DNA of 64,000 bases from Escherichia phage vB_EcoP-ZQ2. Each line of letters starts with the position of its first letter. The first letter of the stretch is position 1. The DNA is taken from sequence record NC_070874.1. One strand, 5' to 3'. Below, piece by piece: positions 30,856 through 41,691 of the stretch. The notes under the pieces are model-generated. The model saw only the letters and a program-made list of their open reading frames with translations, was not told the origin of the DNA and made no database searches. A program made the position numbers and the translations under genes.

Positions 30856-33800
30856 TTGAACAGGAATCATGCTATGTCAACATTTGACCGTCTGGCAGGT
30901 TTCGCAGACAGCATCACTACTGCTAAGCAAGTCGATGTCTCTACTGCAACCTCTCGGAAACAAGCTGAACAAGGGCAAAACCCTTTCCAATTAACCCCAC
31001 AGAACGCCTACCAGTTACAGGCAGGTCGTGCCGGTGATTTAGGTGCTGGTGCATTTGACCCAGGTTCTATTCAGGCAGATTTTACTAATGCCTCTCCTCT
31101 TGAAATCATAAACAAGTATGGCAATGAGCAAGGAATGGACATTCTTAATGCTCGTGTCAATGCAGCTAATGCTGTTCGTCGTGATTTAACTAAGAGTCGT
31201 ACATATGGTGAAGCACTTGGTGATACCCTTTCTGGTGTTGGTCTTGGTGTTGCTAATACCCTTGGGGGCATTGCTGCTCTTGGCACAGGCTTGGTCAATG
31301 ATAATGCCGGGGCATCCATTGCTTCCGGTCTTGACTGGTTGAACAAAGGTGTACACAACCTACAGTCTGATGCACTGAATGCTCGTCGTAATGTAGTACA
31401 GAACCAGAACGTAATATCTGCACAGGAAAACGAAAAACAATATAAGCAGGATATTGATAAAGGAGAAAGTGAACTCGTTGCTTCCTTGTCTCGTATTGGT
31501 CGGGATGCTTACGATTCAGTTGCTAATACTTTGTCCAATGGCATGGCTGCTACAGATGGTATTGCTGAAGGTGTTGGTTCACTGTTTACTGGTGGTCCAC
31601 TTATCCGTGGTGTATCTGCACTTGGTAAAGTAATGGTAGGTGGGGATAAAGCTGTTAAGGGTATTACCTTAGCTGCTGAATTAGGTTATCGTCCTGCACG
31701 TATTGCACAGACTGCTGGTCGTGTTGCTGCACCTGCTATAGCAATTGGTGGTATGGAAGCTGGTGGTGCATACCAACAGACTGCTAATGAAATTATGGAA
31801 ATGCCATTCAGTGAACTGGCTGCTAAATCTCCTGTATACCAACAACATATTAAAGATGGTTTAACTCCTGAAGAAGCACGACGTCAGACTGCATCTGAAA
31901 CAGGTATCACTGCTGCTGGCTTAACCGCCCCAGTTGCTGCTCTCACTGGTCCACTGGTATCCAAGTTTGAACTTAACCCACTTAAGGTAGGTTCACTGGC
32001 TGGTGCTGGTTCTAACATGCTACGTGAGACTGTGGAGGAAGGTATTCAATCCGGTTTCGGTCAATTCGCACAGAACAAAGCAATTCAGGGTAACGTGGAT
32101 GCTAATCGTGATTTGCTTAAAGGTGTAGGTGAACAAACTGGTCTAGGTGCATTGTATGGCTTTGGTTCTGCTGGGGTTGCTCAAGCTCCTGGTGTAACTG
32201 CTAAGACTGCCGTTGCTGCCGTTGGTCCTGCTGTACGTACTACCCTGGCTGGTGCTTCTCTGGCTGGTAAGGCACTAGCAAAAGTAGCTTCTCCTATTAC
32301 TAACATTCTGGTTCAGCGTGGAGAAGAAGTTGCTAAGCGAAATGAGCAAGCATCTCCTGTATCAGACGTTACGGTTAATGCTGCTGCACAAGAAGCTACT
32401 GCTCAGGCAGAACAGGCTCAAGCAACTGTTCAGGAAGCAGTAGATGCAATGGACATTTCTCCAGAAGAGAAAGCTGCTGCTACTCAGTATGCTGCTGACT
32501 TAACTCAGGCAATGAAGTTTGACCCAGTAGAACTGGAACAAGCTAGTCCAGCAATCCGTGAAGCTGTTTCTGGTTCCACTAACCGTGTTGAAGCTATTCA
32601 GAAGATGGCTGACCTGGTTAATACTGCCGAAGATCCTAACGTTCAAATGGAAGCTGCAATCCAGATGTATGACAACATCATGTCTATGGATAGCTTCATT
32701 AACCGTGACCCAGGTGCATTAGCTAATCTGGAACAGGGTTCTCCTGCTGCTAATATTGTTGACCAGTTCTCCGGTCTGATGGCTAACGTTCAGAATACAC
32801 CGAAGGTACTTCGTGCATTCCGTGCCATCCATTCCATGATTCAGGAACAGGCAGAAGCAGGTAAACTGAAGGCTACTGAAGAAGCTAACCAAGCCCAAGC
32901 AAACAACATTGCTATGGCTGCTGATATGTCTCCAGAAGTACTGGATGCTGATTCAGTGAACATGGTTCTGAAACACGCAAGTGAAGGTAAGATTACGCTG
33001 GGGAATCGTCAGCGTGCTGCCCTGCAATCTGCTGCTGCTCTATTGCAAGGAGCACGAGAATTTGATGCTAAAGCAGAAGAGCTAGGCTTACGTCCTCAAG
33101 ACATTGTTAGTAAACAAATTAAAACCGACGAATCTCGTTCTAATGAAGGCCAGTACTCTGCGTTGCAACATGCTAAACGCATTCGTTCTGCGTATAACTC
33201 TGGTAACTTCGATTTGGCTTCCGCTTATCTCGATGACTTTATGAAGTTCGCCCAGCACATGCAGAATAAGGTCGGAGCGTTGAATGAGCATTTGATTTCT
33301 GGGAATGCGGATAAGAATAAGTCTGTCCATTATCAGGCTCTTACTCCCTCCCGTGAATGGGTACGTAGTCGTACTGGCCTCGGTGTTAATCCGTATGATA
33401 CCAAGTCTGTTAAGTTTGCCCAGCAAGTAGGACTGGAAGCCAAGACCGTAGCTGATATTGCTAACGCACTTGCTACGGCTTACCCGGAGCTTAATGTTTC
33501 TCATGTGAAAGTTACCTCATTGGATTCACGTCTGGACAAGCCTGCTGCCCAGGTAGTTAAAGAGTTCCGTCAGGGCAATCTTGACGCTGCTCAATCCCAA
33601 CAGACTAATGAACCAGTGAATCAGGTTGATGAAACTCCTGTTACAAAACAGGAACCAGTTACCCCTACTGTACAGACTAAACCCTCTGTTAGTGAAGCTG
33701 TTAAAACAGAACCCACTATTAAAGAGTCTAAACCACAGTCTGTAAAAGAACCTGAGAACCAGTCTGAAAAACAGGATACCGTTGATCAGTCTACTGAATC

Positions 33801-36800
33801 TGAAAGGGATGCTTATGTAAAAGAGAATACTATTTCTCAAGATACTCTTAATAAGTATGGCGACCGTAAAGAGAGTCCATGGCTCTTTGCTGATGGTACT
33901 GTTGTTGGTTCTAATGGTGACCACATTAGCTTGTCCGATGTATTTGGACATGATGGTTATCGTGATATGTCACTAGATACAGGTGCTATTCGCTCTACCT
34001 TCTACAAAGGAAGCGAGCAACCATTTGTATCATTGCAACTGTTTGATAATCAGAAACTGACTACTGAACAGTTCAATACTGTTCAATCATTCGTAGAAGC
34101 AAACAATGCACTGATTCAGATTGGTGTAGATACATCTGGGCTTAATACCAATAACGTTGAGAAAGAAGAAGTATCACTGGCTCAATTGAAAGCAGACTAT
34201 ACCGTTGGTGGTAAACCTCTATCTCAAATGGAAACAGTGTTCCCTGTCTATAACAATGAAAAGACACCGAACCAGTTCCTTAAAGCATTCTCTCTACCGG
34301 AAGAACCTAAGTCCCGTACCATTGGTTCTGAATCTCCTTTGACTGATGTTAAGAAAGCACTGTCTTCTGTTGCTCGCTTTGAATCATTCACTCAAAAAGA
34401 AAATAACGCTCTCACAAGTGATGTGATTAAGCGTTACCAGGACTTATTTGATTTTGGTGAAACTCTGAAGACTACTCTGTCTGACCGTCTGGCTAAGTTC
34501 CTTGCTAACAAGAATGTTGGTAAACGTTTTGCAGAAGGTACTGAGGCTAACCGTTGGGTAGGTGGTAAATTACTTAACATCGTAGAGAAAGACGGAGATA
34601 CCTTTAAGTTCAATGACCAGTTGTTAGAGACTGCTGTACTTGCTGGTCTGCAATGGCGACTGACTGCTACACAGAATGCTGCCATTAAAGACATGCAGGA
34701 TGTGGCTGCAATTACTGGTGTAAATGCTTCCTTGTTACCAGAAGGTATCCTTGCAGAGTTTGAGAATGCTCAAACCTTAGTAGAAGCTACTAACTCACTG
34801 GCTCAAAAGATTGAATCTTATTGGGGTCTTAACCGCAATGCTGATGCACCTCTGGGCTATACCAAAGGTATCCCGATGGCAATGGCTACAGAGATTCTGT
34901 CTTCCCTTATTGAGATGGGTGAAGTTAAAGAGTCCATGTTGGATGTGTCTGAAATTGACTCAGAATCTAATAAGACCATTGGCCTGTATACCATTGAGAA
35001 GCTGGATGATACCGACGCCATTAACAAATTCCCTACTGCTATTGAGGAAGCTGTCCTCATAGAACCAGAAGAGAAACTGTACCTGGGTGATGACATTCCT
35101 TCCGTGGCTCCTACTCAGTTACGTAACCCAGCTGTTCGTAATACCCCAGAACAGAAAGCTGCTCTTAAAGCAGAACAGGCTACAGAGTTCTTTGTACATA
35201 CCCCAATGGTTCAGTTCTATGAGGCGTTAGGTAAAGACCGTATCCTCGAACTGATGGGTGCTGGTACTCTGAATAAAGAATTACTTAACGAGAACCACGC
35301 TAAATCGCTGGAAGGTAAGAACCGTTCAGTAGAAGACTCTTATAACCAATTGTTCTCTGTTATTGAACAGGTAAGAGCACAGAGTGAAGACATCTCTTCT
35401 GTGCCTATTCATTATGCATACAATATGACCCGTGTCGGTCGTATGCAGATGTTAGGTAAATATACCCCCCAATCAGCTAAGCTGGTTCGTGAGGCTATCT
35501 TACCTACCAAAGCTACCCTGGATTTATCGAACCAGAACAACGAGGACTTCTCGGGCTTCCAGCTTGGACTGGCTCAGGCATTGGGTATCAAAGTTCATAA
35601 AATGACTCGTGAAACTATGTCAGAAGAACTTACCAAAGCTCTGGAAGGTAAGCTGAAACCTGCTGTAGATATGATGGTTGAGTTTGATAAGTCTGGATAC
35701 TTACCTACTGATGCAGTGGATATCTTGAGAACATCTCTGGGTAATGATAAGTCCTTTGTAGCTCTCATGGCTCTTATGGAGTATGCCCGTTACCTTAACA
35801 GTGATGACCGTGCCAACTTTAATACTCCTCTGTACGTTGAAGCTGATGGTGTAACCAACGGACCAATCAACGCAATGGTATTAATGACAGGTGGTAAGTT
35901 CACTCCAAACTGGATTAAGAATACTGCCAAAGGTGGTTTGTTCTTCGGTAAAGCCGGTAAGACTATGAATGAGCATCATACTCAGGATGATAGTGTTGAC
36001 CTGTATGAAGCATCTACCAATAGTCTGCAATTCCATCTGAATGAATTACGTAATACTTATAGTAAGAATATTCCTGTTATAAACCAGATGGACCATCTCC
36101 AGAAGTTAATGGACCTGTTCATCAAAGACTTCAATCTTAATGAAGATGGTACTCTGGACCTGAAACGTGGTATCGCTAAAAACCCACTAACCATTACTAT
36201 CTATGGTTCTGGTGCTCGTGGTATTGCAGGCAAAATGGTAAGTGCAATTACTGATACCATCTACGAGCGTCTAAGCGACGTTCTGAAAGCCCGTGCTGCT
36301 GACCCTAACATTTCCCCAGCTATGGCGATGTTTGGTAAGGAGGCTGCGTCTGAAGCCGATGCTCAGGCTAAGCTGGATACTTTCCTTACTTCTATGAAAG
36401 AACTGACTGGCAAGATTCCAGCCAAACGTAAAGGTAGGTTATTTATTAAGGAAGTAGAAGGTGCTCTGACTGGCAAGTTAAATCCTCAGAAGTTTACCGT
36501 ATCAGGGGATGCTCTGAAGAACTTACAAGAGAATATGCTGCACTTCTTTGTTGAGCCAATGAGACAAGGTATTCGGTTTACTGTTGGTGAAGGATTAATG
36601 CACTCTACTGAGAACTTGCAGAAGGCTACCCAGATTCAATCTCTGGTATTGCAGGATATGTTCCAGCAAGCAGTACAGGCTAAGCTGGCAGAAAAAGAAA
36701 AAGACCCAACATGGAAGAAAGGTGATTTCTTAACACAGAAAGAACTGAATGAAATTCAGAATAGCTTAGCTCCTCTGGCTCCAATGATTAAAACTGGTTC

Positions 36801-39800
36801 GCAGACTTTCTACATTGCTGGTAGTGAGAATACTGATGTTGCTAACCAAGTATTGGCTACTAACTTAGATGACCGTATGCGTGTACCAATGAGCATCTAT
36901 GCTCCTTCGCAAGCAGGTGTTGCAGGTATTCCATTTATGACCATCGGTACTGGTGATGGCATGATGATGCAGACTCTTTCTACTATGAAAGGTGCTCCGA
37001 AGAATACCCTGAAAATCTTTGATGGTATGAACATTGGTATTAATGACATTACTGATGCAAGCCGTAAAGCTAATGAGGCTGTATATACTTCCTGGCAGGG
37101 TAACCCTATCAAGAATGTATATGAGTCTTTCTCTAAGTTTGTTAAGAATGTTGATTTAAATAAGCTGTCCGATTCAGCAATAGATGCTATTGCAAAGTCT
37201 GCTTTAGACTTTGAGCAGCGTGCTCATATTGCCAGGGTAGATGGTGATAGAGATTATAAAATTTCTATGATTAGAGATTCTGGTATTGCATTAATTGAGC
37301 GTAACCTACGTAACATTGCTTTGGGTGTAGATATTCGTCACAAGGTAATGGACCAGGTACAAGTCACTGTTGACCAGATGGCTGCTGTAGGTGCTCCTTA
37401 TGTGAACAACGGTAAAATCTCTCTGGAAGGTCTGACTATAGACCAGCAAGTAGCCAAGCTGAACGAACTGTTTGATGCTGAATTAAACAAGCGTCGTGAT
37501 GCAGTACGTGCTGCTAAAGCGGAACCAACGAAGGCAGAACCAGTGAAGGAAGTGCCGGTGAAAGTTGTACCAGCTATGGAGAAGGTAGGTCGTGTACTGA
37601 AGTCTGGTGTACGTCTGCTGTCTAATACTGCTATCACTAAGCTGGCTAAAGAAATGACCCCTGATCAGCAAGCAGTATTGAAAGAAATACAGAAATCCCT
37701 TGCTGCTAAAGACTATAAGGTTGTTTACGGTACACCTTCTCAACTGGATGCTTATGCCATTGAGAAGAATATTACTCGCCCAGCACCGGAAGATATTGAA
37801 GCTGCTGAAGCTGGTAATGCATACGGCTGGACTAACTTTGAAGATAAGACCATCTACTTAGTTACCCCTTCCTTAGAGACTCTGGTTCATGAATTAGTAC
37901 ATGCCTCTACTTTTGAATCTGTGCTGGCTCACTACGAGGGTACTCCTAATGAAGCAGTCCAGAATATTGAAGACTTGATGAACCAGTTCCTTACTCTGGA
38001 TGTTAAGGATGAATCTCCGGCAGTACGTGAAGCGTATGCCGATGCACTGAATACCATTAATGGTCACCTGTCTAATGGCTTCATTGAACCAGCAATGGCT
38101 AAAGCTGCTGCTCTGAATGAGTACATGGCTTGGGGTTTAACCAACCGTGAACTTATTAGTAAGCAGAAGAAAACCACTGCACTTAAAACTATGGTTCAGG
38201 CTGTATATGAAGCAATCAAACGTCTGGTATTTGGGCGTAAGAAAGCTCCAGCTAATGCAGATGATATGTTCTCAGGCTTACTGTTTAACTCTGCTGTAGT
38301 AATGCGTGGGCAGGCTCCTACTGCTGCTGTAGCTAAAGACACTACTCTGTTCCATAACAAAGCATACGGTAACAATACTCGTCTGGAAGAGTTAGGTAAG
38401 ACCTTCGATAAACTAATTACTGACTACATTGGTTCAGAACCAGTACAGCAAGTAATTCGTAAAGGTAAGTTCTCTGATGCAGTAGTGAATGCAACTAAAG
38501 TAACTCGTGATGTTCAGGCTCATGGCTTCACCATGAATATGCAGGAACAGCGTCTATTTACTAACATTGTTGCTGCACTTGCTACTGAGGCTGCTATTAA
38601 CCCAGCAGCCATGGCTCGTGCACAGGAATACTACACGCATGTTACTAAGAACTTGACCGTTGAAGCGTTCATGGCTGACCCAGATAGTACTAACCCTGCT
38701 GACCGTTACTATGCACAACAGAAGTTCGACACCATCATGGGTGCTAACAACATTGAGTTTGATGCACAAGGTCGTTCTTCCTTACTGCCTACCTTTGTTG
38801 GTCTGGCAATGGTAAGTGAAGAGGTACGTAAGGTACTGGCTGATATTCCTGTTATGAAAGCAGATAAGAAATCAGGTAATACTGTTGACGCAATGCTGAC
38901 TAACATCGGTACTGCTGCAATGGTTAGTCTGAATGCTCGTGTAGCAGGTGATACTAAAGCCACTAACGTGCGGGAAGGTATGGATGCACTGGCTCAGACA
39001 ATTATGGAGACTAGCCTTAATGCACAATCTTTCTATGATTCCGTTGCTACCCCTACTGGTAATGCTATCGACCGTGCTAACCAATATCTGGTGGATTCTA
39101 TTGATGTACTGTCTACTCGTACTTTGGAAGGTGCTCGTGAAGTTGCAGCTAATACCAAGAACCCACTAGTTAAAGGTGCTGCTCATGCTGCACAATTGGT
39201 AGCTGCTATTGCTACAGAGAAAAATGGTGCAATTGTAGCTGAGGGTGTTATGGCTGCAATGAACCAGGGTAAAGTATGGCAACCGTTCCATGACCTGGTT
39301 AATGACATAATCGGTCGTACTAAGAGCAATGCTTCTGTATACGATTTGATTAAAGCAGTACGTGCACAGGTGCAAGCTGACCGTCAACAGTTCCGTGAGC
39401 ATTTGCCTACCACTATCGCATCTAAGTTCAGCCGTAAGCTGACTAATGATGAGTGGAAAGCAATGCATACCGGTATGGGTAAAACTGACTTAGCTGTTCT
39501 TCGTGACACTATGTCTCTGGCTGAAATCCGTGACCTGTTGACTGACCAGAAGATTGTTGACCGTGAGGTTAATAAACTGGAAGCAGATTTGCAGAAGCAA
39601 GCCGGACGTAACTGGCCTCTGATTAGTCGTAAGTCTAAGCAACTGGCTCAGTACATGATTAATGGTACAGTCGGTAATAACCTGCTGCGTAATGCTACTG
39701 CAATTTCTCGTTTACTGGGTGAACGTAAGACTACACGTTCTGTTGTAGATGTAGCACAACTGGATAAATTGATTACCCTGTATGCACTGGAAGCAATGAA

Positions 39801-41691: not shown

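Follow-up and report, generated by a model that had tools for sequence, protein, structure and literature searches.

What does the giant gene at positions 30,856 to 41,691 of the Escherichia phage vB_EcoP-ZQ2 genome (sequence record NC_070874.1) encode beyond what its counterpart in phage N4 encodes? An initial annotation of the 64,000-bp stretch analysed here (the window) had read this uninterrupted 10.8-kb open reading frame (ORF) as a virion RNA polymerase (vRNAP) of 3611 amino acids (aa), somewhat longer than the N4 protein with its roughly 3500 aa, with a central T7-like polymerase module between long flanks of unknown function. It had supposed that the extra length might hide additional domains, for example for genome ejection or cell-wall penetration. 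Comparison with N4 and its relatives places almost all of this surplus in a single folded domain of about 140 aa, here called module B, which is inserted in the tether that leads from the N-terminal domain (NTD) to the polymerase domain (Pol).

The ORF, located on the plus strand and closed by a TAA at 41,689-41,691 bp, is real, as a stop-free frame of 10.8 kb cannot be due to chance. Its 3611 codons are obtained only when counting from the TTG at 30,856 bp, which is merely the first mechanical start of the frame. The in-frame ATG at 30,874 bp is most likely the vRNAP start, because it follows a Shine-Dalgarno-like motif read from the sequence (AGGA, 30,862-30,865 bp, plus strand, 8 nt upstream) and gives the N-terminus MSTFDRLAGF..., which is common to gp50 of N4, G7C, St11Ph5 and Bp4; the coding sequence then spans 30,874-41,691 bp and specifies 3605 aa plus the TAA.

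Homology identifies the ORF as the vRNAP of a Gamaleyavirus, i.e. of a G7C-like N4-type podophage, and thus as a known gene of a known genus. A megablast search with the gene retrieved 86 phage records, headed by Shigella phage pSb-1 and Escherichia phage St11Ph5, whose vRNAP genes are 94% identical at the nucleotide level across 100% of the gene; the best-matching phages belong to the genus Gamaleyavirus (Schitoviridae, Enquatrovirinae). The PHROG family 2206 "virion RNA polymerase" covers aa 25-3604 with 4111 bits, and four Pfam domains of the N4 vRNAP were found between aa 1426 and 2170, all far beyond their cut-offs: PF21867 (aa 1426-1542, E 1.1e-54), the plug domain PF21624 (aa 1558-1640, E 1.5e-25), PF21894 (aa 1718-1934, E 1.9e-100) and PF21769 (aa 2016-2170, E 4.9e-52). 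The alignment with N4 gp50 shows 68.3% identity over 3472 aligned positions and is strictly co-linear, the NTD as well as the C-terminal domain (CTD) included, and the upstream ORFs are 46-67% identical to N4 gp51, gp52, gp53 and gp54, the ejection-protein block. By analogy with N4, the protein would be packaged in the virion, injected and used to transcribe early promoters of the hairpin type. In other records the same gene is labelled "DNA polymerase", "gram positive anchor domain protein", "translation initiation factor 2" or "hypothetical protein" (HK2, PD205, U1G, ECBP1, phi G17, CU10EC, pSb-1), and in pSb-1 it is split into three coding sequences, probably as a result of frameshift errors.

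The protein displays the plan of N4 gp50 (YP_950528; structures 9PNR/9PNQ, PMC13434306, PMC13492108), in which NTD, linker 1, Pol, linker 2 and CTD follow each other, all encoded here on the plus strand. The NTD (aa 1-901, 33,576 bp being the last position of its coding part, which starts at 30,874 bp) is co-linear with the N4 NTD and is followed by the low-complexity, P/T/Q/E/K-rich part of linker 1 (aa 902-976, 33,577-33,801 bp), which matches N4 residues from 907 on. Next come module B (aa 977-1118, 33,802-34,227 bp), an inserted alpha/beta domain, and Pol (aa 1119-2215, 34,228-37,518 bp), corresponding to N4 residues ~1008-2103. Linker 2 (aa 2216-2236, 37,519-37,581 bp, AEPTKAEPVKEVPVKVVPAME), which differs in length by 5-10 aa among relatives, leads to the CTD (aa 2237-3605, 37,582-41,688 bp), again co-linear with that of N4. 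In N4, linker 1 is a low-complexity tether of ~100 residues (907-1006) between NTD and Pol that was left unresolved in the 2026 cryo-electron microscopy structures and treated as a passive linker (PMC13434306, PMC13492108), and linker 2 comprises residues 2102-2123 (PMC13434306).

The central T7-like module was correctly recognized from the outset: the three strings that had been quoted for it, at aa 1654, 1769 and 2047, align with N4 motifs A, B and C. Motif A (YVEADGVTNGPINA, 35,833-35,874 bp) carries D1658, motif B (KNPLTITIYGSGARG, 36,178-36,222 bp) carries K1769 and Y1777, motif C (KIFDGMNIG, 37,012-37,038 bp) carries D2050, and the T/DxxGR motif TRVGR (35,428-35,442 bp) carries R1523. 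These residues, R1523, D1658, K1769, Y1777 and D2050, align with N4 R1421, D1556, K1667, Y1675 and D1948, in identical motif contexts. The N4 catalytic residue numbers are reportedly those of Kazmierczak et al. 2002, and the positions do fall on the expected residue types. The flanks are less obscure than had been stated: in N4 the NTD is a membrane anchor (PMC13434306), while autoinhibition of the polymerase is exerted by the CTD (PMC13434306, PMC13492108), which also contains an HExxH motif in a zincin-like MPTase region predicted by HHpred (PMC5512222). In the window this motif reads HELVH (aa 2339-2343, 37,888-37,902 bp) and is identical in N4 (aa 2228); peptidase Pfam models gave no match on the window vRNAP. 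Shared with N4 gp50 are the residues of T/DxxGR and of motifs A, B and C, the Pfam domains for plug and helical parts, the HExxH of the CTD and the gp51-gp54 neighbourhood, whereas N4 has only low-complexity sequence at the place where the window has the 142-aa module B.

The window vRNAP exceeds N4 gp50 (3500 aa, NC_008720) by 105 aa, and its length lies within the ~3400-3750 aa of N4-like vRNAPs. The G7C gp50, with 3748 aa, is longer than the window vRNAP, and congeners that lack the insert are shorter (3452-3481 aa). The surplus is concentrated, not scattered: blocks of 90, 7 and 21 aa all fall within aa 991-1128. In the alignment, aa 977-1118 have no N4 counterpart; they are preceded by the P/T/Q/E/K-rich stretch and end ~10 residues before N4 similarity restarts at the beginning of Pol. 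N4 in turn has 4-7 aa extra at aa 268, 968 and 2357. Judged by this alignment, the 105 aa come almost entirely from module B in linker 1. Two smaller differences from N4 and Bp4 were noticed: 9 additional aa at aa 2121-2129 (37,234-37,260 bp), where Pol nears its C-terminal end, and a surplus of 5 to 10 aa in linker 2, which is rich in A/E/P/K/V. Both are ordinary length variation of a linker or loop.

Composition, predicted structure, selection and homologs outside vRNAPs all agree that the insert is a domain. The Shannon entropy of the linker (aa 900-975) is 2.96-3.3 versus 3.5-4.0 for the insert, and hydrophobic residues account for 12-23% of the linker versus 33-42% of the insert, the latter resembling the folded flanks on both counts. 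AlphaFold, run on module B with an alignment of 19 sequences, returned an alpha/beta fold with five helices (mean predicted local distance difference test score (pLDDT) 93.1, predicted template modelling score 0.87). When aa 900-1135 were predicted as a single chain, the same elements were recovered for the module with a pLDDT of 87-98, and the linker, represented by only two sequences in that alignment, had a pLDDT of 51-61 and no secondary structure. An independent BFVD model of the pSb-1 copy superposed with a template modelling score of 0.93. The ratio of non-synonymous to synonymous substitution rates (dN/dS), calculated against G7C, St11Ph5 and Bp4, is 0.04-0.06 for module B, compared to 0.30-0.48 for the linker, 0.07-0.16 for Pol and 0.05-0.11 for the CTD, and the G+C content of the module is 0.39 versus 0.44 for the whole gene. 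On this modelling and substitution evidence, aa 977-1118 form a folded domain under strong purifying selection, not a linker, and the suspicion that the extra length conceals an additional domain has been borne out. The residues S1001, P1002, L1004, G1008, D1016, H1017, R1040 and Q1066 are invariant across the module-B family, as could be expected of a catalytic or ligand-binding site.

None of the models in Pfam, PHROGs and NCBIfam, Pfam LPD models included, matched the insert or any of the 19 family members. A profile search of PDB sequences with module B gave nothing under E 0.03, the best match, a tandem construct of RNase A, being spurious, and comparison of the modelled fold gave no significant match. 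The top structural matches, all below significance, were the archaeal tRNA splicing endonuclease 2zyz and Hjc resolvases. A nuclease of the PD-(D/E)xK or restriction-endonuclease-like type is unsupported. A cell-wall hydrolase is unsupported as well: there is no muralytic Pfam or NCBIfam match in the insert or in the rest of the protein, and lysozyme sequences in the PDB matched only at E >=0.9. The insert thus gives no lysozyme, transglycosylase or peptidase signal that would point to the cell-wall-penetration or genome-ejection role suggested for it, and an ejection role is further unsupported because relatives of module B also occur in conjugative relaxase-type proteins unrelated to phage ejection. 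Internal duplication was discarded, since no other part of the window resembles the insert, which is also unrelated to module A, a second insert that is described below.

The relatives of module B were found by an exhaustive phmmer (HMMER) search of 1.84 billion representative proteins, which gave 22 matches; two of these are artefacts caused by repeat proteins, and about 19 are true relatives (E 3e-45 to 2e-4, 28-67% identity). A word-indexed homology search found none with the insert itself, and only the stand-alone P0010 with its profile. The genuine homologs sit at varying positions inside large proteins, next to SLT, ResIII/Helicase_C, methyltransferase and LPD39 domains (P0003), methyltransferase, ddrB-ParB and LPD39 (P0004), LPD38 (P0005 and P0016), LPD22 (P0006), SLT (P0009), a polyvalent-type InPase (P0012), or a TrwC relaxase with AAA_30 (P0019). 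A tblastn search of plasmids gave a single match, in a Vibrio LPD7 protein of 1417 aa encoded directly downstream of mobC. The gene for the closest relative (P0004, 63%), a protein of 3253 aa, comes last in the virion gene block of a temperate podophage of the P22/SU10-like kind with a 43-kb genome. Going by these homologs, module B belongs to an uncurated domain family that is otherwise known from polyvalent proteins, large multidomain proteins which phages and conjugative elements introduce into the cell along with their DNA. The family also has a stand-alone member of 166 aa, encoded among replication genes on a phage-like metagenomic contig (L009, 7,294-7,794; ERZ23491061 scaffold_4375); its gene lies between those for a PolB-exonuclease and ParB, and a ubiquitin-like Prok_Ub / E2 / JAB / ThiF cluster follows a few genes downstream.

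A degenerate DNA pattern for module B located 5 further viral loci, and a single-sequence locus search returned Gamaleyavirus copies only. In bacterial genomes the same pattern gave 40 loci, about the number expected by chance, and the family hidden Markov model validated 0 of them. Two other vRNAP lineages have divergent copies, placed just upstream of their Pol: L024 (IMGVR_UViG_3300006805_000103), whose Pol is 42% identical to that of the window, and the metagenomic P0014/P0023 (3597-3601 aa), of which P0014 has a weak PF21894 match and a Pol 25% identical to that of the window. The three vRNAP copies of module B are 28-33% identical to one another and do not cluster: the window copy is closer to P0002-4 (61-67%), and the L024 copy to P0015/L021 (~50%). 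Because each vRNAP copy is closer to non-vRNAP proteins than to the other vRNAP copies, the comparison suggests repeated capture of module B into the same slot, although the relationships come from a neighbour-joining tree of a 130-aa domain, which is weak evidence. In another large viral protein (L028, IMGVR_UViG_3300046534_001237) the module-B homolog has the linker repeat ITATSEAITQASN on both sides, which may be a trace of recombination of modules into repetitive linkers.

Within Gamaleyavirus, module B is a presence/absence character. A tblastn search with the module gave 27 phage records, all of them Gamaleyavirus vRNAP genes and all at least 91% identical, while about half of the equally close Gamaleyaviruses are without it; the vRNAPs of PW8, AN24P2 and CU10EC (3452-3481 aa), for instance, have neither module A nor module B. 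Compared with PW8 and AN24P2, the junctions are sharp (~nt 33,778 and ~34,224), the flanks outside them are at least 95% identical, and 450 nt of the window stand in place of 54 nt of N4-like linker. G7C carries, directly upstream of B, the unrelated module A of ~130 aa (gp50 aa ~975-1100). Elsewhere, module A was found only in Shigella phage B2 (Humphriesvirinae; L011, 9,001-9,354), in the same slot and without B. No Pfam model matched module A, and its sole PHROG match was a weak one to an HTH family (E 0.011). The slot was thus found empty, with A, with B, and with A and B. Since the two copies of module A are 76% identical and the remainder of the G7C and B2 vRNAPs only ~25%, this comparison indicates lateral transfer from one subfamily to another, for module A at the least.

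Spans across the slot were surveyed in 171 phage records by tblastn with aa 600-1500 of the window vRNAP as query. Spans of 2200-2380 nt, corresponding to an empty slot, prevail among N4-like phages: they are seen in N4 itself, in phages of Klebsiella, Achromobacter, Pseudomonas and Burkholderia, and in about half of the Gamaleyaviruses. Carriers of B have 2661-2718 nt, G7C 3150 nt, and the Stenotrophomonas phages Pokken and Piffle ~2640 nt. The Erwinia phages Gutmeister, phiEaP8 and Kuerle have spans ~100-200 nt above the typical value. In Pokken (L034, aa ~495-600 of the fetched piece) the slot holds a third cassette, which follows a P/E/T/V linker of its own and contains the motif R-G-Q-G-G-A. 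Five GNAT acetyltransferase Pfam families matched it, all below threshold (best E 1.2e-3), and the cassette is a probable candidate for a minimal GNAT. If this is what it is, the injected polymerase may bring a minimal acetyltransferase with it.

What could such a domain do in the tether of an injected polymerase? We consider it reasonably probable, if well short of certain, that module B is an exchangeable, pre-made cargo domain that is injected with the polymerase and acts on a host or nucleic-acid target. The vRNAP would work like N4 gp50, with the NTD anchored at the inner membrane and the disordered linker 1 serving as the tether to the T7-like Pol, which would transcribe the early genes and be autoinhibited by the CTD. 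According to models for N4, Pol and CTD would refold in the cytoplasm while still tethered via linker 1. Linker 1 would be a tolerant slot that receives ready-made cargo domains by recombination, and module B would come to lie on the cytoplasmic side, at the site of DNA entry, before any phage gene is expressed. Counter-defence and takeover are examples of what its action on such a target could achieve there. Delivery of module B into the cytoplasm is suggested by the analogy with N4, and with its ~140 aa the module is below the size of the 250-300 aa beads that have been proposed for passage through the ~30-35 Å channel. We infer an effector role for it. A bolder version, to be taken as speculative, would have linker 1 of the schitovirus vRNAPs act as a dedicated, hot-swappable payload slot, into which various small folded effectors, such as module B, module A and the GNAT-like domain, are recombined from the pool of polyvalent domains, to be injected in finished form and held at the point of DNA entry ahead of phage gene expression, with module B as an effector of new fold, directed for instance at a host defence, that partly sets which strains a G7C-like phage can infect.

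Module B might instead be a structural or ejection bead without action on host targets, which during packaging or ejection tunes the length of the tether or provides a contact of gp50 with gp51, portal or membrane; we regard this as unlikely. Such a role would suit its place, flanked by the membrane-anchoring NTD and by Pol, in a protein for which a beads-on-a-string mode of travel has been proposed, and also its size, smaller than that of the beads thought to fit the channel. The suggestion made in the initial annotation also pointed this way. However, phages with near-identical flanks manage without it, the domain family also occurs in relaxase-type and other non-vRNAP proteins that use unrelated delivery machines, one family member exists as the stand-alone protein of 166 aa among replication genes, and the invariant polar D, H, R and Q suggest a specific site over a spacer.

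We think it rather improbable, too, that module B aids early transcription as an accessory to the polymerase, by binding single-stranded or hairpin DNA, a DNA end, or host SSB or gyrase at the entry site. The module is located immediately N-terminal to Pol, early transcription of N4 requires host SSB and supercoiling (PMC4496689), the family is common to relaxases, which likewise handle single-stranded DNA, and the top structural matches, the splicing endonuclease and Hjc, are nucleic-acid enzymes. Yet these matches are below significance, N4 and the PW8-type phages transcribe without module B, and an RNA polymerase is lacking in most carriers of the domain.

We give very little credence to a selfish or neutral passenger, be it an intein-like or homing-type insertion or a recombination remnant, from which the phage would gain nothing. 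The presence/absence polymorphism with its sharp junctions and the slightly lower G+C content of the module could be read in this way, and in G7C-like phages other essential genes are known to harbour introns and homing elements (10.1101/542787). But no Hint, intein or homing-endonuclease signature was found; the edges of the module (beginning ...TES/ERD, and MET after the insert) have no splice-junction residues. The predicted fold is alpha/beta and not HINT, the insertion site in a disordered linker instead of a conserved motif is atypical for inteins, and the dN/dS of the module indicates selection at the protein level as strong as that on Pol. An intein or HINT element is thus unsupported, no Hint or intein Pfam model having matched.

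Mere variation in linker length, for which it can be said that the alignment is otherwise co-linear, that the indels map to linkers 1 and 2 and that the 5-10 aa differences in linker 2 are of just this kind, is refuted for aa 977-1118 by their normal complexity and hydrophobicity, confident predicted fold, very low dN/dS and homologs down to E 3e-45 in unrelated proteins, and we hold it to be next to impossible. The initial annotation had named a purely co-linear alignment to N4, with length differences restricted to low-complexity linkers, as the outcome that would speak against hidden domains; co-linearity and the location of the indels in two linkers were indeed found, but the main indel is a folded domain.

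The reading of module B as injected cargo can be set against the closest known systems. The Gamaleyavirus vRNAPs of St11Ph5 (YP_010659910), pSb-1, Bp4 and G7C (gp50, YP_004782180) are 87-94% identical to that of the window at the nucleotide level and 89-97% at the aa level, and carry the same module B, 91-98% identical to that of the window; G7C differs by having module A upstream of B, where the window has B alone. Polyvalent proteins, among them N4-like vRNAPs with optional ART, lysozyme and PBECR domains, were described by Iyer, Burroughs, Anand, de Souza and Aravind in 2017 (PMC5512222). The window vRNAP resembles them in being large, in its presumed delivery with the DNA by analogy to N4 and in an accessory globular domain that is shared combinatorially, and may do so in its HExxH motif, which marks a candidate MPTase region. 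It differs from the described polyvalent vRNAPs in that module B matches no Pfam LPD, ART, lysozyme or PBECR model, and in that the linker-1 position and the alternation of cassettes there are not described in the literature searched. Module B is, as modelled, a globular domain not unifiable with known domains, as is characteristic of the LPD type. Pfam is not known to have models for all of LPD1-LPD40, and module B may coincide with an LPD family of Iyer et al. without Pfam model. The gene and its insert have been in GenBank since G7C (2011), labelled just "virion RNA polymerase"; the gene is known, and the insert appears to be undescribed. Within the searchable text of the literature on N4 structures, on the evolution of the G7C set, on Possum and on polyvalent proteins, no insert in linker 1 and no slot-like behaviour is described.

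Several further features were noted in and around the gene. A bidirectional intrinsic-terminator hairpin is located just past the vRNAP stop (41,696-41,721 bp), and the annotation of G7C includes equivalent terminators. Another hairpin, rich in G+C (AAAGCCCC-ATCC-GGGGCTTT), lies at 30,787-30,806 bp between the stop of the gp51 homolog (30,770 bp) and the vRNAP start; it was passed over by the terminator scan because it is followed by TCTCTT, without a clean T-run. Sigma-70-like promoter matches are depleted over the vRNAP gene (30,500-42,500 bp), with 8 found versus 21.4 +/- 4.8 in shuffled sequences. On the minus strand, a frame of 139 aa (33,088-33,504 bp), lying over vRNAP aa 739-877, is stop-free in 7 of the 7 phages compared, N4 included. 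This block is the most conserved part of the NTD, with 126 of its 139 residues identical to N4; the codon identity of the antisense frame is mildly raised (0.88 vs 0.71-0.80), its product looks like junk, and conservation patterns indicate that it is probably a by-product of the conservation of the sense strand. A second antisense ORF (33,526-33,951 bp) was discarded as spurious because it is broken in relatives. In the gene-poor stretch downstream of the vRNAP gene, ARAGORN predicts a tRNA-Ile on the minus strand (43,103-43,177 bp), whose anticodon, AAT, is unusual for bacteria and phages.

The only substantial difference between this vRNAP and that of N4 is a discrete, conserved and laterally exchanged domain in a disordered tether. 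A domain common to phage-injected and conjugative relaxase-type proteins, and so far uncurated, merits a database model. Because near-isogenic pairs exist in nature, with the window phage or St11Ph5 having the module and PW8 or AN24P2 lacking it in flanks that are at least 95% identical, the function of the module is testable by comparison of host range. If the tether is a cargo slot, the polymerase would not be the only ready-made protein that N4-like phages introduce at time zero of infection, when restriction, CRISPR and abortive-infection systems come into action.

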